DNA of 64,000 nt from Cenarchaeum sp. (GCA_965242695.1 CBDESU010000002.1:352001-416000); one strand, 5' to 3'. Shown: positions 3,283 to 62,884, numbered from the stretch's first letter. The notes: generated from the letters alone by a model not told the origin. Program-made: numbers and translations.

Positions 3283-4389
3283 CTACGACTTAGCGACTGG
3301 TAGCGACGCGGCGACGGGGTACCCGCGCCTCCTAGCGATCGCGTAGTGCCGACCGAGATCCCGCTCAAGGCCGCCCATCCTGCCCAGCTGCACGACGGGC
3401 GCCGCGCCCTTCCTCCTTTCGGCGTTCCTGCGCGCTAGCGCGTCGACGTACTCGGGAGGCGGGAGCATGCGCACCTTTTCGCGGCCGCATCCCTGGCATG
3501 CGAGGACGAGGTTCCACGCCCTGGCCCCGCCCACGTAGTCGGCCGGCAGGAAGTGGTCGATGCACATGCGCTCGTCGGGCCGTGGGCGCGCGTCGCAATA
3601 GAAGCAGTGTCGCCCCCCGATCTCCAGGCCGGGCAGGAACCCGCACACGCTCTCGCATCCGTCGTAGGCCGCGAGGAACCTGCCGGCCAGGTTGGGGGAG
3701 CCGGGGTTGAGCGAGTCGGTGGCCCGTAGCCATTCGAGTGCGACGGCCCTGCTCAGCGCCCCGTAGTTCTCGCGTAAGAACCGCGATGCGGCTCGGTTCA
3801 CCAGTATCCCGCCCCTCAGGTCGACCCGGCGACTGCCCTCCTTGTCCGCCGGCCCCGCCGCGTACTGGTAGAACATGCGCGGCTCCCTGCCGCCGACCTT
3901 TTGGAACCTGTAGACGACCTGCCTTGGCATGACCCTTGCGATCTCCTTTATGCACCGCCCGGTCCTCTCGGGCTCGTCGCGGATTGCCTGGCAGACCGAC
4001 TGCCCGTACTCGCCTTCTCCAAACTCCTTCTCGATCGCCGTCATGACCAGGGGCGTCTCGGTGGCGGGCCCCTGCCGGAGCCCCGCATTGCATGCAAGGG
4101 GCCAGTAGTATGCGAAAAAGTACCGCGCAATCTCGGCGTACCTCACCCTTATGCCGCCTGCGGTGTCGACCGCCCCCGGCGCTTCCTTGTCCCTCGGCCG
4201 CCCGTACATCCGCAGCACCATGCACGGATCGCAGCAGAGGTCGAGCAGGAACCGGGCCATTGCGAACTTGTACGTGTTGTTCCTCCTGCCCTCACTTGCG
4301 ATCGCGACGAACCAGTCGCGGAACTCCCCGTTGGACCATTTGGCAAAGCCGAACCGCTCGCGGCCGCCGCCCTCCTTTCCCCCAGCCAT
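3283..4389 (-). CDS. HNH endonuclease domain protein (TYKF-type N-terminal domain)
   Basis: NNTYKFAMARFLLD N-terminal motif; C-terminal CFYC...IDHFLP...WNLVLACQGC. Start moved to ATG4389. Confidence 0.8.
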   Translation of the reverse strand: MAGGKEGGGRERFGFAKWSNGEFRDWFVAIASEGRRNNTYKFAMARFLLDLCCDPCMVLRMYGRPRDKEAPGAVDTAGGIRVRYAEIARYFFAYYWPLACNAGLRQGPATETPLVMTAIEKEFGEGEYGQSVCQAIRDEPERTGRCIKEIARVMPRQVVYRFQKVGGREPRMFYQYAAGPADKEGSRRVDLRGGILVNRAASRFLRENYGALSRAVALEWLRATDSLNPGSPNLAGRFLAAYDGCESVCGFLPGLEIGGRHCFYCDARPRPDERMCIDHFLPADYVGGARAWNLVLACQGCGREKVRMLPPPEYVDALARRNAERRKGAAPVVQLGRMGGLERDLGRHYAIARRRGYPVAASLPVAKS

Positions 4390-5474: not shown

Positions 5475-8399
5475 TCACGGCTTGGCCGAGCCGCAGGCCA
5501 GCCCGCCGTCTTTTTTGCTGCGGGTTCTGGGCCGGGATCGCTTCATCACGCTCGGCTCTGCGCACCACAGCCGGGTGAGCTCCCTGTAGTCATACCCGGG
5601 CGCGCCGAGCATGCTGGTCACGGCCGCGCTTATTCTGTCACGCGCCTTGTCCCCATCCGACTGGTAAGCGGGGCGTAGTGATATGGGCCTTGGGCGGGCG
5701 TGCCCTTTTTGGCTTGTCCCCACGCGGTGTCGGGATTGCCGCACCAGCGGCCCCGCCATTTCGTCGAACTGGGCCGCCGCCGCGTCCAGCGCGTCGTCAC
5801 CAAGCTTGGCAAAGTCGGGGCACTGCACCTTTGCGACCGCGCCGACCTGCATCCTAGAGCGGGCGTCCTGCTGCGATCTCTGCCCGTTGGCCCAGTGTGC
5901 CACCATGCCGAACACGGAGTTTGCCCACAGCGCAAACGCCTTCATGACGCGCCTGTCGCCGTGCCGGAGCCCGACCCAGGCGCTCCCGCCCATCACCCTG
6001 CGCCTTGTCATTACGGCGACCATGGCCTGCGATGACCACGTCATGTTCTTCTGGAAGAACAGCGTGGTCCGCCTGCCCCACATGTCGCCGGCTCTCTGTC
6101 CGCCGTCGCCCCCGCCGTCGACATGCACTGTCCCCTTGTGGGTCGGCGTGGCCAGGAGATGCCTCTGCCTTTTTCCGTCCGACTTCCACATGGAGCGGTG
6201 CAGCCCGACCGCATCGGGCTTGCCAGTGACGGGCGTGAATGTGAATGCGCCGCGGGCGTCCCTTTTTTCCAGATGCCCTATGAGGTCGTGCGTGGGGCCC
6301 ACCTCGAACAGGTCCCCGATGGTGGTCATGTCGAACGTTGAGGCCAGATCGCCCTCCATGTCCAGCAGGCGGCCGCCAAGCAGTCCGTTCTTGATCATCT
6401 CTAGGACATCGCTGACCGACCCGACCGCGCTCCACGGCTCTCCCTCACGAGCCTCAAACGTGTGGGATACGCCGATCTCGTCGCCCCCCAGCGTTATGGT
6501 CCCCGCGTCCGGCCCCGCCATTACGGCCTTTGCCACCTCCGCCGCCTCGCCGACGCGCAGCACGGGCTCGTGGAGGGTCACGCAGCGAACGGGGGACGAG
6601 TCCTTGGACCTCTCGCCCCTTTTCGTGCCGACCAGCATTATTTCCTCCAGCATCGTGTCGGCCGATAGCGCATCCTTGCCCAGCGCCTTTCCCGGCGACA
6701 CTGCCACAACTGTAATGTCGGTAAACCACGCCTCGACCATCCTGCGCGTGGTCGCCCACACGTCGGAAAACGCCGCCGTCCTGGGAAGGACGAACCCTAT
6801 GCGCCCGCCAGGCCTTGCTTTTTTGCGCGCAATGCACAGGAACGTGGCGGCCATTCCCGCCCTCTTGTCGCAGTCCTCGCCCTTGATCAAATCGCCCCAC
6901 CTCTTTTTGCACGCCTTCTTCTCGTCGTCGGACAGGCCGTCCAGATCAAACGCACTCTGCCCGCCCCTCGTGCGCGAGTATGGCGGATTCATAAGCACTG
7001 CGGCTATTTCACCGTCCCTTACCACCACCGACTCGCCCGCGCCGCTGCGCCCCGTCGACAGGCCGAATCCCTCGGAAAAGAGGTCCTGTATGGAGTTGTG
7101 CCCGATGTACTCGATCGATCCCGTCCTGTTCTGGTTGCCGACCCCAACCCAGCCCACGTTTGTCTTTCCGTACGGCTGCCTTGACACCACGGCGAGGCTG
7201 GTCGATGTCAGGTGCGCCGCTATGGGCGATATGTCCGCGCCGTACAGACCCGCCTCCATCGCCCGCCGATGCAGGAGCTCTAGAGTTTTTGTCGTGCCGC
7301 CGCCTTGTTCATGATATAACCTCACTTGCCGGTATCCAAACCGCAGAAGTGTCCCGGTCCCGCACGACATGTCCGCAATTTTGAATGTTTCGAACAGATC
7401 GGGGCTGACCCAATCAGCCATGTCCTTTCTGATCGTGGCGTAGGCGAGGAACTCCGCCGTGGGCGGCTGGGTGTAGAATGCGGCAGACTCCTTTCGATCC
7501 TTGCTGAGCTTTGGGAACAGCTCGGCGCCTATGTTTATCTCGCTTCCGATCTTTGCCGCGTCTATTGTTGCGGCGGCCCTGTGGAGGCGGTCAAACGACC
7601 TGGCGACTGCGCCTGGCGCGATCAGCAGTAGATCATCCAGTATGCGGACGGCCGGCTCGAATATCGCCCTCCAGTTTATCTCGTATATTTTTTTCCACGC
7701 ATCGGCGCACTCGAGCGGGTTTTGCGACGGCTTTGGTATGTCGTAGAGTCCGCCATACAGCGCCTTTTGGACCAGGATCGCGTTGAGCCATAGTATGCAC
7801 GTGGTTTGCAGCCCGTTGAGCGCTGATCTCTGGTACAGGATTTGGGACAGGTTGCGCAGGTACTCGTCGTCTACTGCGCCATCCAGTATGTTGGCCGCCT
7901 CCTTGACGCACGTGGCCACATCCTGCGCCGCCCGTTCTACGTCCTCCCTTGGTACAGATGCGGACGAGACGAGCCGTGCGATGTCTTCGTACGATCCTTC
8001 TATGAAGCCGCGCGCGGGAAACCGGCGGTAGCCGTCTGTCGACGTCTTCTGATGCACGGCGTACCTAAGGACGTGCCGCTGGCTGAGGCGCGCTGTGTTG
8101 CGGTGGGACTTTTGAAGCTCGACCGCTATCGCGGTCTTGATTTCGTCCCCGTTCTTTGCGTAGTGCTTGCCAAGTCGCGCCTTGGCATCCTCGTCTGCAT
8201 CGCGGCGGACGTAGGACGTCTCGATCGCCACCGGAGGCATGTCTTGCCCGGCGACCAGTATGTCGACGCGCAGTGACTTTGACTCGCGGAGCAGGCGGGT
8301 CTCTTCGACGAATATGGACTTTTTCCACGCGGGCTTGGAGCCTGCGAGTGCATCACCGAGCGCGCGGTTGAATGCCTGCTCGCCCCTCAAGGCATGCAC
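5475..8399 (-). CDS. Type IIG-like fused restriction endonuclease / N6-adenine methyltransferase
   Basis: N-terminal PD-(D/E)XK-like RVDILV...VAIETS, AAFYT, motif I DMSCGTGTLL, motif IV NPPY, long C-terminal TRD-like region. Start GTG8399 or TTG8390. Confidence 0.88.
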   Translation of the reverse strand: MHALRGEQAFNRALGDALAGSKPAWKKSIFVEETRLLRESKSLRVDILVAGQDMPPVAIETSYVRRDADEDAKARLGKHYAKNGDEIKTAIAVELQKSHRNTARLSQRHVLRYAVHQKTSTDGYRRFPARGFIEGSYEDIARLVSSASVPREDVERAAQDVATCVKEAANILDGAVDDEYLRNLSQILYQRSALNGLQTTCILWLNAILVQKALYGGLYDIPKPSQNPLECADAWKKIYEINWRAIFEPAVRILDDLLLIAPGAVARSFDRLHRAAATIDAAKIGSEINIGAELFPKLSKDRKESAAFYTQPPTAEFLAYATIRKDMADWVSPDLFETFKIADMSCGTGTLLRFGYRQVRLYHEQGGGTTKTLELLHRRAMEAGLYGADISPIAAHLTSTSLAVVSRQPYGKTNVGWVGVGNQNRTGSIEYIGHNSIQDLFSEGFGLSTGRSGAGESVVVRDGEIAAVLMNPPYSRTRGGQSAFDLDGLSDDEKKACKKRWGDLIKGEDCDKRAGMAATFLCIARKKARPGGRIGFVLPRTAAFSDVWATTRRMVEAWFTDITVVAVSPGKALGKDALSADTMLEEIMLVGTKRGERSKDSSPVRCVTLHEPVLRVGEAAEVAKAVMAGPDAGTITLGGDEIGVSHTFEAREGEPWSAVGSVSDVLEMIKNGLLGGRLLDMEGDLASTFDMTTIGDLFEVGPTHDLIGHLEKRDARGAFTFTPVTGKPDAVGLHRSMWKSDGKRQRHLLATPTHKGTVHVDGGGDGGQRAGDMWGRRTTLFFQKNMTWSSQAMVAVMTRRRVMGGSAWVGLRHGDRRVMKAFALWANSVFGMVAHWANGQRSQQDARSRMQVGAVAKVQCPDFAKLGDDALDAAAAQFDEMAGPLVRQSRHRVGTSQKGHARPRPISLRPAYQSDGDKARDRISAAVTSMLGAPGYDYRELTRLWCAEPSVMKRSRPRTRSKKDGGLACGSAKP

Positions 8400-8505
8400 C
8401 CCCTGCAGGGATGCGCCCGCGTCCGTATGGGGCGGCCTGCCAGACGATCGCAGATCGCCCCTGAAACATCAGGGCGGCGCCTGCCGGGGGACTTGGAGCC
8501 TGTTA

Positions 8506-8840
8506 GCGGAGCGGAGCGGAGCGGAGCGGAGCGGAGCGGAGCGGAGCGGAGCGGAGCGGAGCGGAGCGGAGCGGAGCGGAGCGGAGCGGAGCGGAGCGGA
8601 GCGGAGCGGAGCGGAGCGGAGCGGAGCGGAGCGGAGCGGAGCGGAGCGGAGCGGAGCGGAGCGGAGCGGAGCGGAGCGGAGCGGAGCGGAGCGGAGCGGA
8701 GCGGAGCGGAGCGGAGCGGAGCGGAGCGGAGCGGAGCGGAGCGGAGCGGAGCGGAGCGGAGCGGAGCGGAGCGGAGCGGAGCGGAGCGGAGCGGAGCGGA
8801 GCGGAGCGGAGCGGAGCGGAGCGGAGCGGAGCGGAGCGGA
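8506..8840. repeat. Perfect pentanucleotide microsatellite (GCGGA)x67
   Basis: 335 bp of uninterrupted GCGGA, ~105 bp upstream of the R-M gene. Confidence 0.97.
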
Positions 8841-9053
8841 GCATGACTAGCATCGTACAATCGGGCGTACGCTGCGGCTTATTTATGACATGTCGTCCGC
8901 GCCTCGCCTTGCCTCCCCGTGAGCGTCTAGGCGCCTTCCCCACACGCGGGGCGACGCCACGCAGTCTGCGGCGACACGGACGCTAGATCGGGGCAAGTCG
9001 CGGGATTGAAGCGTCTGCCGGCATCCAGCCGCAACGCCACTGCATGGATTCAA

Positions 9054-9235
9054 GGCTGCAAGGGTCCGCGGCACCTCCACGGCATCGTGATAGCAGATAT
9101 GCTCCGGCCCGCAGGTTGAGCTAGGGGCTGCAAGGGTCCGCGGCACCTCCACGGCATCGTGATAGCAGATATGCTCCGGCCCGCAGGTTGAGCTAGGGGC
9201 TGCAAGGGTCCGCGGCACCTCCACGGCATCGTGAT
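9054..9235 (-). CRISPR. CRISPR-like mini-array: 3 x 38-bp repeats, 2 identical 34-bp spacers, no cas genes in window
   Basis: GGCTGCAAGGGTCCGCGGCACCTCCACGGCATCGTGAT at 9054, 9126, 9198 (period 72). On the minus strand it has hairpin CCGTGG-AGGTG-CCGCGG and ends CCCTTGCAGC, reminiscent of ATTGAAGC-type repeat ends. Identical spacers weaken the call. Confidence 0.5.
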
Positions 9236-9639
9236 CAAAGAAACATCCGCAAGGGGCTTGCCTCCGCTGTCGCAAGGAGCCTCCGCCTTCGCACCGCCTT
9301 CAATGGGATGGACGCACGGTTGCCAAAGGATTGGGATGATTGCGTTGCTAAAATCCAGGCGGTGGGCTAGCGCGCCGCTCATGCGGCCGAGATCAGTAGG
9401 CAGATCGTCGCTCGCATCAACGGGAAGATGGGAACCTTGCCGACGCCGGCGTGGCTCTCAGGTGTAGAACACGGGCAAGTTTTGCGATGCCATGCTGCCT
9501 CCATGACCCGCGCGGGGCAGACCCAACAAGGGATCGCAGGGGGGGCCGCTCCCCGCGCCCCGCTACGTCCAGAATTTGGCGTGGGGTGCACCCCTGCCGC
9601 CCTGCCGATAACATGGGCGCCTAGCCCGCCGTCATTCAT

Positions 9640-10785
9640 CTACCCCCCCCCCCCCTCGATTATCCCGAGCATCGCCTCTTGGAAGGCCTCCTCCGAGAAC
9701 CCCTGGACGTGCTCGCGCAGCGCCGGCAAGAGATGGTCGTACCGCCCGTCGAGCGCCTCCCTCACGATCCCTGCCGCCTCCTCCTCGGTCCCGTACCGCA
9801 GCTCGGCAAACGGCACCGTCTCGGGGTGCGCCGAGTTGTCTGGCACGACGGGCACACACCCCGCCGCGATTGCCTCTGCCACCGCGATCCCGAACGTCTC
9901 CTTTGACGCGTGCAGGTACACGCGGGCGCGGCCGAGCGCCTCGTCGACGGCCCCGGGCCCCTCGTTGAGGCGGAGGCGGGCGCCGATGCCGGCCGCCGTA
10001 CCGGCGACCATGCGGTGGTACTCTAGCTGGTACGAGTGGGCCGCGCCGCCGACGACCTCCCACCGCCCCGCTCCGGCCCTGGACATTATCCGGGCCGCGC
10101 CGACCAGGTTCTTTTCTGGGGCGTAGCGGGCGACCGTGGCCACAACGTCCTCCTTGGCGCGATGCCGCAGCGCCGAGTACCGCCGCAGGTCGACCGGGGG
10201 GTGCACCACCGGGCCGGGCTCCCTGCCGACCGCCCGCCCGACCACCTCCCTGGTGTCGGCAGAGTTTGGCACGAGCAGCACCCTCTCGCCGCGCGCTAGC
10301 CGCAGCACCCTCCTGTCGGCCCTCCTGGCCAGGTAGTACCGCAGGCGGGCCCTCGGCGACCGGCTCTTTCGGAGGTGGTCGATCCTTCCCTCCTCGCGCA
10401 GGGCCGCGTTGCAGTAGAGTATGACGCGCGGCGCGTCCGTCCTCTCGAGTGCGAATCCGCCGTCGGTCACGACGAGCGCGTCGGTCCCGGGGCCGGCATC
10501 GAAGAGGCCGCCGCGGCCTGGCGATGCGGTCCCGCCCTGCCCTGAGGCCAGGTCCAGCCGCACCCTGCGCAGCGTAATGTGGGAGGCGCGGCAGGCGGCA
10601 TCGCACGGGGACCACGGGAGGGCGGGGAACCGCTCGCCGCCGGCGAACCGCACCCCGTGCGGGGGATCGACGCACCGCAGCGCGACGTCGTGGCCCGTGC
10701 GGTCAAGCGCCTTGAGGAGCGACAGGCAGACGCGCTCGCCGCCGCCCGTGACGCCCAGGCTGCGGTGGACGACGGCGATCCTCAC
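9640..10785 (-). CDS. Glycosyltransferase family 4 (GT-B)
   Basis: GGGERV N-terminal motif, VARYAPEKN, ETFGIAVAEAIAAG (EX7E). Confidence 0.92.
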   Translation of the reverse strand: MRIAVVHRSLGVTGGGERVCLSLLKALDRTGHDVALRCVDPPHGVRFAGGERFPALPWSPCDAACRASHITLRRVRLDLASGQGGTASPGRGGLFDAGPGTDALVVTDGGFALERTDAPRVILYCNAALREEGRIDHLRKSRSPRARLRYYLARRADRRVLRLARGERVLLVPNSADTREVVGRAVGREPGPVVHPPVDLRRYSALRHRAKEDVVATVARYAPEKNLVGAARIMSRAGAGRWEVVGGAAHSYQLEYHRMVAGTAAGIGARLRLNEGPGAVDEALGRARVYLHASKETFGIAVAEAIAAGCVPVVPDNSAHPETVPFAELRYGTEEEAAGIVREALDGRYDHLLPALREHVQGFSEEAFQEAMLGIIEGGGG

Positions 10786-47294: not shown

Positions 47295-48010
47295 GCGGCA
47301 GCTGAGGACCGCCGCCCCGCACGGCCTGGATCGATTCCCGTCCCGTCCCCCGGGGGCCCGCGGCAAGAACCCGCGCAGTGCCGGGCGCGGACAGGGACGT
47401 ACGCAGGCGGCGGTGGCCGGCCGCCGCCTCCAGCCCCCCAGCCGGCAGGACTGCCGCGCCCGGGGCCCCTTCCCGGCCCGGCATCCGCCCCGCATCCGCC
47501 CGCTCGAACGGCGCCGCCGCCGGGCGGGGCGATCGTGCCGGGCGGAGCGATCGTGCCGGGCGGAGCGATCGTGCCGGGCGGAGCGATCGTGCCGGGCGGA
47601 GCGATCGTGCCGGGCGGAGCGATCGTGCCGGGCGGAGCGATCGTGCCGGGCGGAGCGATCGTGCCGGGCGGAGCGATCGTGCCGGGCGGAGCGATCGTGC
47701 CGGGCGGAGCGATCGTGCCGGGCGGAGCGATCGTGCCGGGCGGAGCGATCGTGCCGGGCGGAGCGATCGTGCCGGGCGGAGCGATCGTGCCGGGCGGAGC
47801 GATCGTGCCGGGCGGAGCGATCGTGCCGGGCGGAGCGATCGTGCCGGGCGGAGCGATCGTGCCGGGCGGAGCGATCGTGCCGGGCGGAGCGATCGTGCCG
47901 GGCGGAGCGATCGTGCCGGGCGGAGCGATCGTGCCGGGCGGAGCGGACGGCGTGCTGCGGCGGCGCAGGCCGTGCGCAGGGCGGCCCGCCGGTCGGGGCG
48001 ACGGGGCGCG
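47295..48010. repeat. Dispersed GC-rich element, copy C, with 18-bp VNTR (GCCGGGCGGAGCGATCGT)x23 at 47519-47945
   Basis: Directly visible; flanks align with copy A. Confidence 0.92.
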
Positions 48011-60445: not shown

Positions 60446-62884
60446 TCAACTAATCGTCCCCAAGGAAAAGAAGACAGCACATCTGACAGATTCGAACAAT
60501 ATGCCCACTGCTTTGTCGCTAGACCGGGCCAGCGTAGCACGGGCCGCATTGATGCACAGTCTTCGGGCCGCATTGATGACAAGCTTGCCTTTCGTCTTGT
60601 CGTGTGCTAGCGCACCGTGGCTTGTCGACGTGTTGGTACAGGCGGCACAGACAGTGCAGTTCCAGACATCGCTGTTGCAGGCACAGGGGCCATGCGCAGG
60701 AAAGGTATTTTCGCTGTTCTGCATGAATTGCCTGCACGGGGTGCCGCCGCTGCGAATGCGGGCAGGGTCTTGCAGGGCGCGCCGTCCGACGCATTCTTTC
60801 CTAGAGCTTGGCCTGCCGGGCTTGTCTTTACGTTTGGTGGCAGAGGCCATCATAGATGCCACCTCCTTTTCAACCCCGGCCACGCGGGCCTCAACCCCGG
60901 CCACGCGGGCCTCAACCCCGGCCACGCGGGCCTCAACCCCGGCCACGCGGGCCTCAACCCCGGCCACGCGGGCCTCAACCCCGGCCACGCGGGCCTCAAC
61001 CCCGACCCACGCCGGACGTTCCAGCGCCTCCGGTGCATCAGTTTGCAGGATCTTCTGGTCGGGCAAGTCCTCGCTTTGTGCAAGGTTCGTCAAGACTGAT
61101 GCCTGCGCGTCTTTGGTCATCTGGATCGGGTACCCGAGATGCAACAATCTCGGCTGGCGGGTGTGCAAGTCCGAGCGCGGCGCCCACGGCGCGGCAAGGG
61201 CCGCGGCCGCGGCCACCGCCTCGTCCTCGTCGCCGTAGCCGGCCGCGGCCACCGCCTCGTCCTCGTCGCCGTAGCCGGCCGCGGCCACCGCCTCGTCCTC
61301 GTCGCCGTAGCCGGCCGCGGCCACCGCCTCGTCCTCGTCGCCGTAGCCGGCCGCGGCCACCGCCTCGTCCTCGTCGCCGTAGCCGGCCGCGGCCACCGCC
61401 TCGTCCTCGTCGCCGTAGCCGGCCGCGGCCACCGCCTCGTCCTCGTCGCCGTAGCCGGCCGCGGCCACCGCCTCGTCCTCGTCGCCGTAGCCGGCCGCGG
61501 CCACCGCCTCGTCCTCGTCGCCGTAGCCGGCCGCGGCCACCGCCTCGTCCTCGTCGCCGTAGCCGGCCGCGGCCACCGCCTCGTCCTCGTCGCCGTAGCC
61601 GGGAAGATCCCCGTAGTCAAAAGCCTCCAAGAACCGGTTTCGGGGCCGCGGCAAGTACGACATCAAAGGGAGGCACAAGGCCGAGCGCGGCGACCATGTC
61701 GCGGCAGGGGCCACCCGGAGATAGTCCGCGGACGGGGACAAGGACGGGTTGCGCACACCTCCATGCCGCCATGCGGCCGCCAGCGGGTCCGACCCTCGCG
61801 CCAGGCCGTCGCGCCGCCATGCGGCCGCCAGCGGGTCCGACCCTCGCGCCAGGCCGTCGCGCCGCCATGCGGCCGCCAGCGGGTCCGACCCTCGCGCCAG
61901 GCCGTCGCGCCGCCATGCGGCCGCCAGCGGGTCCGACCCTCGCGCCAGGCCGTCGCGCCGCCATGCGGCCGCCAGCGGGTCCGGCGCGCCTTCCCCTACG
62001 GCCTCGACCTCCTCCATCGCCGACCTGAGGAGGTCATCGTACGAAGGCAGGGGAGGTGGCGGGGGAGGGGCGTGCGGCGCGACCTCGGGCGCCCATGCGC
62101 CCGGCGGCATGCCCGGCGCGCCTTCCCCTACGGCCTCGACCTCCTCCATCGCCGACCTGAGGAGGTCATCGTACGAAGGCAGGGGAGGTGGCGGGGGAGG
62201 GGCGTGCGGCGCGACCTCGGGCGCCCATGCGCCCGGCGGCATGCCCGGCGCGCCTTCCCCTACGGCCTCGACCTCCTCCATCGCCGACCTGAGGAGGTCA
62301 TCGTACGAAGGCAGGGGAGGTGGCGGGGGAGGGGCGTGCGGCGCGACCTCGGGCGCCCATGCGCCAGGCGGCATGCCCGGCGCGCCTTCCCCTACGGCCT
62401 CGACCTCCTCCATCGCCGACCTGAGGAGGTCATCGTACGAAGGCAGGGGAGGTGGCGGGGGAGGGGCGTGCGGCGCGACCTCGGGCGCCCATGCGCCAGG
62501 CGGCATGCCCGGCGCGCCTTCCCCTACGGCCTCGACCTCCTCCATCGCCGACCTGAGGAGGTCATCGTACGAAGGCAGGGGAGGTGGCGGGGGAGGGGCG
62601 TGCGGCGCGACCTCGGGCGCCCATGCGCCAGGCGGCATGCCCGGCGCGCCTTCCCCTACGGCCTCGACCTCCTCCATCGCCGACCTGAGGAGGTCATCGT
62701 ACGAAGGCAGGGGAGGTGGCGGGGGAGGGGCGTGCGGCGCGACCTCGGGCGCCCATGCGCCAGGCGGCATGCCCGGCGGCGCCTGTTCGCTGTGTACGTC
62801 CCAACGCTGCCGCGCCGCGCCGGCGCTTCTTCCGCGCCTCCTCCTCTTCCGCCGCCGCGCCCCGGATGCCACGCCCCTGCCCAT
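60446..62884 (-). CDS. Tandem-repeat-built hypothetical protein (812 aa)
   Basis: Open through four in-frame repeat blocks; starts 7 bp after the upstream gene's stop. Confidence 0.55.
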   Translation of the reverse strand: MGRGVASGARRRKRRRRGRSAGAARQRWDVHSEQAPPGMPPGAWAPEVAPHAPPPPPPLPSYDDLLRSAMEEVEAVGEGAPGMPPGAWAPEVAPHAPPPPPPLPSYDDLLRSAMEEVEAVGEGAPGMPPGAWAPEVAPHAPPPPPPLPSYDDLLRSAMEEVEAVGEGAPGMPPGAWAPEVAPHAPPPPPPLPSYDDLLRSAMEEVEAVGEGAPGMPPGAWAPEVAPHAPPPPPPLPSYDDLLRSAMEEVEAVGEGAPGMPPGAWAPEVAPHAPPPPPPLPSYDDLLRSAMEEVEAVGEGAPDPLAAAWRRDGLARGSDPLAAAWRRDGLARGSDPLAAAWRRDGLARGSDPLAAAWRRDGLARGSDPLAAAWRHGGVRNPSLSPSADYLRVAPAATWSPRSALCLPLMSYLPRPRNRFLEAFDYGDLPGYGDEDEAVAAAGYGDEDEAVAAAGYGDEDEAVAAAGYGDEDEAVAAAGYGDEDEAVAAAGYGDEDEAVAAAGYGDEDEAVAAAGYGDEDEAVAAAGYGDEDEAVAAAGYGDEDEAVAAAGYGDEDEAVAAAAALAAPWAPRSDLHTRQPRLLHLGYPIQMTKDAQASVLTNLAQSEDLPDQKILQTDAPEALERPAWVGVEARVAGVEARVAGVEARVAGVEARVAGVEARVAGVEARVAGVEKEVASMMASATKRKDKPGRPSSRKECVGRRALQDPARIRSGGTPCRQFMQNSENTFPAHGPCACNSDVWNCTVCAACTNTSTSHGALAHDKTKGKLVINAARRLCINAARATLARSSDKAVGILFESVRCAVFFSLGTIS
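60870..62779. repeat. Four tandem arrays: 21 bp x6 (60870-60995), 36 bp x11 (61205-61600), 48 bp x~4.5 (61765-61983), 132 bp x6 (~61981-62779)
   Basis: Directly visible; all unit lengths are multiples of 3. Confidence 0.93.

Follow-up and report, generated by a model that had tools for sequence, protein, structure and literature searches.

A perfect pentanucleotide microsatellite, (CTCCG)67.6, was found between the only TATA-like box and the start codon of a type IIG-like restriction-modification (R-M) gene in the archaeon Cenarchaeum sp. We propose, with somewhat less than even confidence, that this hypermutable tract belongs to the transcribed leader of an R-M gene acquired horizontally, where it would act as a contingency locus by setting the frame of an upstream open reading frame (uORF) whose stop codon can overlap the start codon of the enzyme. 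The locus lies in a window of 64,000 nucleotides (nt; GCA_965242695.1 CBDESU010000002.1:352001-416000), to which coordinates given without a contig or locus name refer. The genome of the window, G000, comprises 3.89 Mb in two contigs, C1 and C2.

Tandem Repeats Finder placed the array at positions 8505-8842 (338 bases, period 5, 100% matches, score 676), where it was the longest microsatellite in G000. The unit reads AGCGG on the plus strand and CTCCG on the minus strand, which is the sense strand of the gene, and a spacer of 114 nt (8391-8504, minus strand) separates the array from the gene start. A first-pass annotation had described the array as (GCGGA)67 preceding an R-M gene and had asked whether it might be an artefact of assembly. 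Logan contigs from four runs of three studies, some of the runs containing the window being labelled sponge metagenome, led into the repeat: those of runs X2, X4 and X6 ended 34-36 nt beyond position 8498, about 30 nt inside the repeat, while that of run X1 extended 260 nt beyond the same position. The array is thus present in other samples and is no invention of the assembly, copy number aside, since no contig spans the array and 67 copies is the assembled value. Run X6 represented a diverged strain, with three substitutions and no indels in the spacer. Exact-pattern scans of metagenome contigs, one for the upstream junction and one for the start region, gave 0 matches each.

The gene itself occupies positions 5475-8390 on the minus strand and encodes 971 amino acids (aa) when read from TTG8390, or 974 aa from GTG8399, the start given in the list of open reading frames (ORFs). 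TTG8390 was judged the better start because it aligned with the initiator Met of the homologues, matching the first Met in 14 of 15 sequences, the fifteenth being an N-terminally truncated record. Full-length homologues measured about 950-1000 aa, and one of them (P0003) was 90% identical. The motif NPPY, found at residues 471-474 as in N6-adenine methyltransferases of the gamma class, was invariant in 16 of 16 aligned sequences, and homologues are annotated with PF02384/PF07669. The window protein itself gave a weak match to Pfam Eco57I (19.1 bits against a cut-off of 25.3) and a similarly weak PADLOC match, NCBIfam returned 0 families for it, and a search of the protein-family profile against PDB sequences returned 0 matches.

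Structural comparison was more informative. The AlphaFold model of the whole chain had a predicted local distance difference test (pLDDT) score of 68.8, with values below 50 in residues 703-808 and other C-terminal parts, and its best Foldseek match was the type IIG enzyme BpuSI (E = 1.4e-13), followed by DrdV (1.2e-11), LlaBIII and BrxX/PglX. Residues 1-137 modelled alone reached a pLDDT of 91.2, and their best VIA match was the nuclease domain of BpuSI (3s1s_A 18-159; Z 8.5, root-mean-square deviation 3.2 over 113 residues). Behind it came restriction-endonuclease-like folds, HsdR and Hjc, a consistent list, though with Z near chance level. The predicted model thus carries the N-terminal PD-(D/E)xK-type nuclease domain expected of type IIG enzymes. 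The candidate catalytic positions D43, E57 and S59 were invariant among the homologues; nuclease motifs of this kind usually carry K where these homologues have S59. As BpuSI was the best match both for the whole chain and for the N-terminal 137 residues, R-M gene is a fair label for what the model suggests, with the nuclease as a putative component, and together with the NPPY motif these matches bear out the R-M identity proposed in the first-pass annotation as type IIG-like.

The gene has a lower GC content at third codon positions (GC3; 0.78) than typical genes of G000 (about 0.9). The closest archaeal homologous loci come from metagenome-assembled genomes (MAGs) of Nitrosopumilaceae or Thaumarchaeota, and the rest of the gene family from MAGs bearing sponge-symbiont names, such as Poribacteria, Rhodothermales and Poriferisodalaceae. 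The single small-subunit rRNA of G000 scored higher against the archaeal model (1450 bits) than against the bacterial model (1086 bits).

A candidate archaeal promoter precedes the repeat. The TATA-like box TCATAAATAAG (8888-8878, minus strand), 46 nt before the repeat, had no equal in the 1281 nt of sense strand between 9640 and 8360: no other stretch there reached 7 of 8 A/T. The 114-nt spacer held no 7-mer with at least 6 of 7 A/T; its only AT-leaning stretch, GATGTTTCA, was changed in the X6 strain. With the sole TATA-like box ahead of the repeat and no second one before the gene, transcription of the repeat is probable; the transcript is predicted to start some 10-15 nt before it. Across 623 high-confidence ORFs of G000, pure A/T 7-mers peaked at -32 to -27 before the first ATG, and motifs resembling the Shine-Dalgarno (SD) sequence were scarcely more frequent at genes (56 of 554) than in control windows (35 of 554), from which we infer that most mRNAs of this genome are leaderless. 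Several repeat-free methyltransferase genes of G000 likewise had TTAAATA about 29 nt before their ATG. A scan for bacterial promoters returned 0 sites, the bacterial model not being relevant to archaea, and an Rfam search of positions 8200-9700 gave no match. One terminator-like hairpin was seen at 9261-9249 on the minus strand.

Two start codons lie between the box and the repeat. TTG8860 (8858-8860, minus strand), which the first-pass annotation had named as the uORF start, opens an ORF of 157 aa (8387-8860, minus strand). As that annotation had stated, its frame reads through all repeat units to the TGA at 8389-8387, which forms a 4-nt overlap, TTGA (8390-8387, minus strand), with the TTG start of the R-M gene, as in coupled gene pairs. 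Our frame analysis agreed on this and on the early stops of the other two frames downstream of the repeat, TAA 8505-8503 at 115 nt before the gene and TGA 8471-8469 at 81 nt before it; the AT-rich box was likewise recovered, one base longer at either end. ATG8853 (8851-8853, minus strand), in the frame of the ORF at 8503-8943 (minus strand) that ends at TAA 8505-8503, is the better candidate for a leaderless uORF start: the ATAAATA within TCATAAATAAG begins 32-33 nt before it, compared with 25-26 nt before TTG8860, a spacing at the edge of the genome-wide peak. Because the unit has 5 nt, one repeat number in three brings a given start to the overlap, again as had been claimed. For TTG8860 this is the present number of 67; for ATG8853, 67 units lead to the stop at -115, 68 to that at -81, and 66 or 69 to the overlap. 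A long, perfect, non-triplet repeat thus stands where changes in unit number could shift expression, as at known contingency loci.

Three readings of the leader frames were discarded. The gene's own frame is closed downstream of the repeat by TGA 8471-8469, so that leader and enzyme cannot be fused at any repeat number and the enzyme cannot extend N-terminally across the array. The leader ORF was also rejected as a real protein, its Extensin_1 match being of low complexity (46.5 bits against a cut-off of 105). Finally, the absence of stops from the repeat was uninformative as coding evidence, since (CTCCG)n is open in every frame and so were 20 of 20 permutations of the unit.

The proposed mechanism would run as follows. 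Transcription, directed by the TATA-like box at 8888-8878, would begin about 10-15 nt before the repeat, as the position of the box suggests, and ribosomes would initiate leaderless at ATG8853, or less likely at TTG8860, and read through the repeat. By simple arithmetic, gain or loss of one 5-nt unit through replication slippage would move the uORF into another frame downstream, and the frame would decide whether it ended at the TAA 115 nt before the gene, at the TGA 81 nt before it, or at the TGA overlapping TTG8390. Only the overlapping stop would hand terminating ribosomes to the weak TTG by reinitiation, so that about a third of repeat numbers would give high expression. The sequence GGGGGTG (8403-8397, minus strand), an SD-like motif 6 nt before TTG8390 that pairs with the 16S 3' end ...GGAUCACCUCCU over seven positions including one G-U, is of a kind seldom seen in G000 and may supply a basal level in the uncoupled states. 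The stops at -115 and -81 are taken as uncoupled because, according to a Haloferax volcanii study (PMC10666635), termination-reinitiation couples genes only when they overlap or lie very close together, and about 20 nt between them abolishes it.

The same layout recurred at related genes. A paralogue in the same genome (G000:C1:673043; 58% identical) has TGAAATA beginning 30 nt before an ATG, followed by (GACTCTAC)18, a 120-nt spacer, GGGGGTG and TTGA; its spacer held no 7-mer with at least 6 of 7 A/T, and a CTATACA lies just after its 8-nt repeat. In the sister genomes of the genus, locus L017 (G004) carries (CGCCCTC)79.7 ending 13 nt before the ATG, where a 207-codon uORF (839-1462) stops at a TAA 5 nt short of that start codon and a TGA directly adjoins the same codon, and locus L016 (G002) carries (TCCCCGATCC)5.2, a 40-nt spacer and then TTGA. 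These two loci are not an unbiased sample, since they were found by searching near such genes. The TTGA start overlap was also present at L108, a 50% identical homologue in G148 with no leader repeat, where TTAAATA stands 30 nt before ATG2903; this ATG opens a leaderless uORF of 31 codons, which ends in a TGA overlapping the enzyme's TTG. L108 is the strongest support that the sequences lend to the uORF idea, though statistically weak. In the Nitrosopumilaceae record L037, the +1 frame was open for at least 63 codons up to the same overlapping TGA. L114 is plainly leaderless and lacks a uORF. L037 also has CTG at 2995-2997, the position of the TTG start in relatives, and for P0058, the database protein of that contig, the annotated start is a later Met. 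Alignment of the leaders of four loci was not meaningful, which argues that the shared architecture is not simply inherited sequence.

In order to set these loci against an unbiased sample, we collected every gene reaching E <= 1e-50 in the family Nitrosopumilaceae (401 genomes); there were 20, and 19 of them had upstream sequence. An array was counted if it lay within 400 nt upstream, had 4.5 or more copies and showed 95% matches or better. Five of the 19 had a perfect upstream array, with periods of 5, 8, 10, 11 and 14, one being a 14-mer of 78.5 copies, whereas in the G000 background only 15 of 623 genes had any such array and 5 of 623 a non-triplet one. As the five units all differ, the arrays must have arisen independently. 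In addition, four of the 20 genes contained a G/C homopolymer of at least 9 within the ORF (background 6 of 623, and 0 of 623 for tracts of at least 15), and the G17 tract of G148 and the C9 tract of G104 sit exactly at frame breaks, although homopolymer-length errors of assembly are possible there. In all, 8 of the 20 carried an upstream array or an in-ORF homopolymer. The link between hypermutable repeats and this R-M family in Nitrosopumilaceae is well supported. Among 79 mostly bacterial loci of the wider family, only two had comparable features: L115, with G25 in the ORF (4144-4168), and L059, with a small array, (GCAGCCC)4.6, right at the start (2948-2979). L059 also has a 13-mer of 14.5 copies further upstream (711-898). 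At L165 (G178) the perfect 14-mer of 78.5 copies spans 1099 bp (126-1224) and ends about 157-176 nt before the start of a family member, with AT-rich stretches between array and start.

Taken together, the switch through coupling proposed in the first-pass annotation stands in part. The position of the repeat between the sole TATA-like box and the start, the TTGA overlap, the repeat-free uORF of L108 and the recurrence of unstable repeats in the family all speak for it, and a number of observations weigh against it. By the TATA-to-ATG spacing of this genome, ATG8853 is the better leaderless start, and the assembled allele would then be uncoupled; at the 673043 paralogue, ATG 672766 is also in a frame that ends just after the repeat, and both assembled alleles would then be uncoupled. 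The strong SD-like GGGGGTG may let the R-M gene initiate independently, so that coupling would perhaps be unneeded. The NTGA at the start is, judged from the aligned family, a consequence of its conserved Lys/Arg second codon. The open leader ORF is close to chance expectation, since (CTCCG)n cannot hold a stop and the 114-nt spacer was open in the TTG8860 frame in 49% of shuffles; over five leaders the product of the shuffle probabilities was 0.035, and the open +1 frame is thus weak evidence. Two of the three X6 spacer changes alter residues of the leader frame, a rate about the same as in the gene. The L163 array starts where transcription is predicted to start and has no start codon ahead of it, and a distant 940-aa paralogue has a canonical TATA, TAAAAAT, at -33 between its array and its ATG. 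Perfect arrays also precede housekeeping genes of G000 (a PALP enzyme, GINS/MCM, the SAM synthetase region and HisRS), and 24 of the 27 large methyltransferase ORFs of this genome have no long upstream array.

Of the alternatives, a frame-independent effect of the leader retains appreciable but limited probability, and we consider it unlikely rather than remote. Here the repeat would be transcribed as an untranslated, or incidentally translated, leader, and its length irrespective of frame would set expression as a rheostat, by way of mRNA stability or early termination, or because the pyrimidine-rich repeat with its CUCC pairs with G-rich sequence around the ribosome-binding site. The placing of the TATA-like box upstream of the repeat, with none downstream, suits this mechanism too, and the L163 array, with no start codon ahead of it, makes an effect of the leader that ignores frame just as conceivable. 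The sense units at three loci, CTCCG, CGCCCTC and TCCCCGATCC, are pyrimidine-rich with CUCC/CCUC, and G-runs precede the starts; in the minimum-energy fold, repeat units pair with the start-codon region. The leader fold was, on the other hand, no more stable than shuffles (minimum free energy -74.7 kcal/mol against a mean of -75.7, z = 0.26), nor was that of the 673043 paralogue (z = 0.62), whose (GACTCTAC)n is not pyrimidine-rich. Copy numbers of 67-80 far exceed what a switch modulo 3 needs, and a precedent exists in hmw1A of Haemophilus influenzae, the expression of which is, in the accessible part of PMC12721329, inversely proportional to the repeat number in its 5' untranslated region (5'-UTR). 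A rheostat would nevertheless leave unexplained the uORF and stop/start overlap of L108 and L037.

A serious rival, to which we likewise accord a minor share of belief, is that the array is a neutral by-product: a lineage without loop repair would gather arrays wherever they are tolerated, for instance in the leaders of recently acquired, weakly constrained R-M genes. G000 yielded 1729 Tandem Repeats Finder rows in its 3.89 Mb, and no MutS_V domain was found in this genome, which is 96% complete, a result that counts in favour of the contingency locus as well; there was only a weak NucS_C match (C2:763219-763437), and these two results may bear on the abundance of perfect arrays. The low GC3 of the R-M gene, the arrays before housekeeping genes and the many methyltransferase ORFs lacking a long array all fit such an explanation. 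So do the (GGGCCTTGCC)26 that follows the ATP synthase D gene and a (GGGC)67 array in G004 that separates the 3' end of a methyltransferase gene from the 5' end of a BtuF-like gene. Neutral accumulation accords poorly, however, with the enrichment in the family (5 of 19 against 15 of 623) by five different units, and the G17 and C9 tracts at in-ORF frameshifts of further homologues are a classical contingency signature. It also fails to account for where the arrays lie. Among the arrays examined near six other genes, five had an AT-rich box between array and start (HisRS, LSm/SAM synthetase, GINS and RNR, by Pfam, and a 468-aa ORF with no Pfam match), and therefore lie upstream of the promoter, whereas those of the window gene, its 673043 paralogue, L017 and L016 stand between the AT-rich box and the start.

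It is very improbable that the true promoter lies downstream of the repeat, which would then alter the initiation of transcription, if it did anything, via spacing or DNA structure. The 940-aa paralogue with its TAAAAAT, the CTATACA after the repeat of the 673043 paralogue and the AT-rich stretches of L165 would allow it, but neither the 114-nt spacer nor the 120-nt spacer of the close paralogue holds an A/T-rich 7-mer, the L017 array is only 13 nt from the ATG, and the AT-leaning stretch of the spacer is not conserved in the X6 strain. An artefact of assembly, in the array or in its length, is the least credible explanation and close to negligible, for although the Logan contigs do not span the repeat, they enter it in four runs, and comparable arrays stand at related genes in four other genomes. 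Our estimates for these four readings and for the contingency locus together leave almost nothing over.

The proposed contingency locus can be compared with several systems known elsewhere. In Campylobacter jejuni, Cj0031 is a type IIG nuclease and methyltransferase in one polypeptide whose expression is tied to a hypermutable poly-G tract (PMC8713573, citing Anjum et al. 2016, as excerpted). The homologues with in-ORF homopolymers, namely G148/L108 (G17), G104 (C9) and the bacterial L115 (G25), resemble it; the window repeat, in contrast, has a 5-nt unit in 67.6 copies, lies in a leader outside the ORF, belongs to an archaeon and is known here from sequence alone. In the phasevarions of Neisseria, Haemophilus, Helicobacter, Moraxella and Streptococcus (Type III mod and Type I hsd), slippage switches an R-M methyltransferase ON or OFF (PMC13076061, in the part available). 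The combination of a simple repeat with an R-M DNA methyltransferase gene is shared, but those repeats lie in the coding sequence and frameshift the enzyme, whereas here TGA 8471-8469 prevents the repeat from fusing with or breaking the ORF.

Other parallels concern the leader rather than the enzyme. In hmw1A an (ATCTTTC)n repeat in the transcribed 5'-UTR tunes expression, according to the same excerpt of PMC12721329, and as in the window a non-triplet repeat stands between candidate promoter and start codon. hmw1A differs in having a long hairpin of repeat and G-rich sequence that is cut by RNase III, no comparably stable fold being seen in the window leader (z = 0.26), and further in gene class, domain of life and copy number. 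The variable leader G-repeat of tlpB in Helicobacter pylori is targeted by the small RNA (sRNA) RepG, which modulates expression post-transcriptionally (PMC8295292, in the section available). The window shares a simple repeat in a (predicted) mRNA leader, yet tlpB needs a trans-acting sRNA, and the Rfam search of 8200-9700 mentioned above found no match, no dedicated sRNA search having been made. Termination-reinitiation at 4-nt overlaps of the ATGA type is reported for Haloferax volcanii and Escherichia coli in the accessible part of PMC6728339. The TTGA of the window is of this kind, and strict dependence on distance would silence two of its three frames; those cases are, unlike the window leader, fixed pairs of protein-coding genes. 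Within the extracts that our literature searches returned, there was no description of a repeat shifting an upstream frame into and out of a stop/start overlap, and no paper linking simple repeats to R-M genes of Thaumarchaeota. Compared with known repeat-based phase variation of R-M genes, the locus would be new in its archaeal domain, in its far higher copy numbers and in the use of a predicted translated leader in place of the coding sequence.

Simple-repeat phase variation is textbook bet-hedging of host-adapted bacteria. Should the contingency reading hold, ammonia-oxidising archaeal symbionts would vary anti-viral defence, and possibly their methylome, through hypermutable repeats, with the repeat acting from a translated leader by stop/start coupling and the enzyme itself not frameshifted. 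Repeat numbers of 67-80 copies would then be compatible with function. It is conceivable that the repeat units include recognition sites of the enzymes themselves. Rather more doubtfully, the window gene may be one member of a large, horizontally acquired repertoire of type IIG enzymes in sponge-associated Nitrosopumilaceae, part of which would be under stochastic simple-repeat control, with a leaderless uORF and the repeat number modulo 3 gating reinitiation on a weak TTG. Each population would on that view mix cells that restrict and methylate at different sites, much as bacterial phasevarions do, but in archaea. A 2025 review, in the portion available (PMC11868660), lists the archaeal distribution of phase variation as future work.

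Such a repertoire exists in G000 at least in terms of gene number. PF02384 (N6_Mtase) matched 22 times in G000 and 23 times in G004, the two large genomes of the genus, five times in G002 and once each in G001 and G003, most matches being ORFs of 800-1200 aa. Together with P0001-like genes, G000 has 27 large methyltransferase ORFs, a large type IIG-like expansion. A general rule that all R-M methyltransferases of G000 carry repeats was rejected, as long arrays within 700 nt upstream were present in only 3 of the 27; two further ORFs had minor arrays, (CCG)10.7 and G13. Seen from the side of the repeats, three of the four non-triplet arrays of G000 with a period of at most 10 and a length of at least 100 bp stood upstream of methyltransferase-type genes. 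The array of the 940-aa N6_Mtase/MmeI-like paralogue (L027 5382-5789; G000:C1:1890382-1890789) consists of (GGC)71 followed by (GGCA)50 about 300 nt upstream, and lies outside the leader because the paralogue's own TATA stands between array and gene. The same array flanks a divergent 1038-aa ORF with no Pfam or PADLOC match, followed by a 1028-aa MmeI/Eco57I-like methyltransferase gene. The (GGGC)67 of G004 (contig C2; L153 6449-6717) directly follows the stop codon of a 1119-aa methyltransferase gene; after it comes an ORF which, judged by eye, would encode a BtuF-type binding protein.

Homopolymers were also seen in G000 outside the R-M family. A 517-aa ORF with a DDE transposase domain contains a C34 tract (L028; C1:1176688-1176721) 81 nt from its start, and a G22 tract (L029; C2:1408915-1408936) lies inside a 248-aa ORF that overlaps the next ORF, of 253 aa, in another frame; neither of this pair matched Pfam, and the two may be one gene split at G22. 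Other G/C tracts of 20-27 stood 50-670 nt upstream of unrelated genes, among them a G20 before a 723-aa ORF with no family match and a G21 before a PIN-ATPase-KH protein. Within the window, further perfect or near-perfect tandem arrays were an 18-mer of 23.7 copies (47519-47945), a 9-mer of 6.6 copies (895-953), a 72-mer of 2.5 copies just upstream of the promoter-like box at 8888-8878 (9054-9235) and a cluster of 21-, 36-, 48- and 132-mer arrays (60870-62784).

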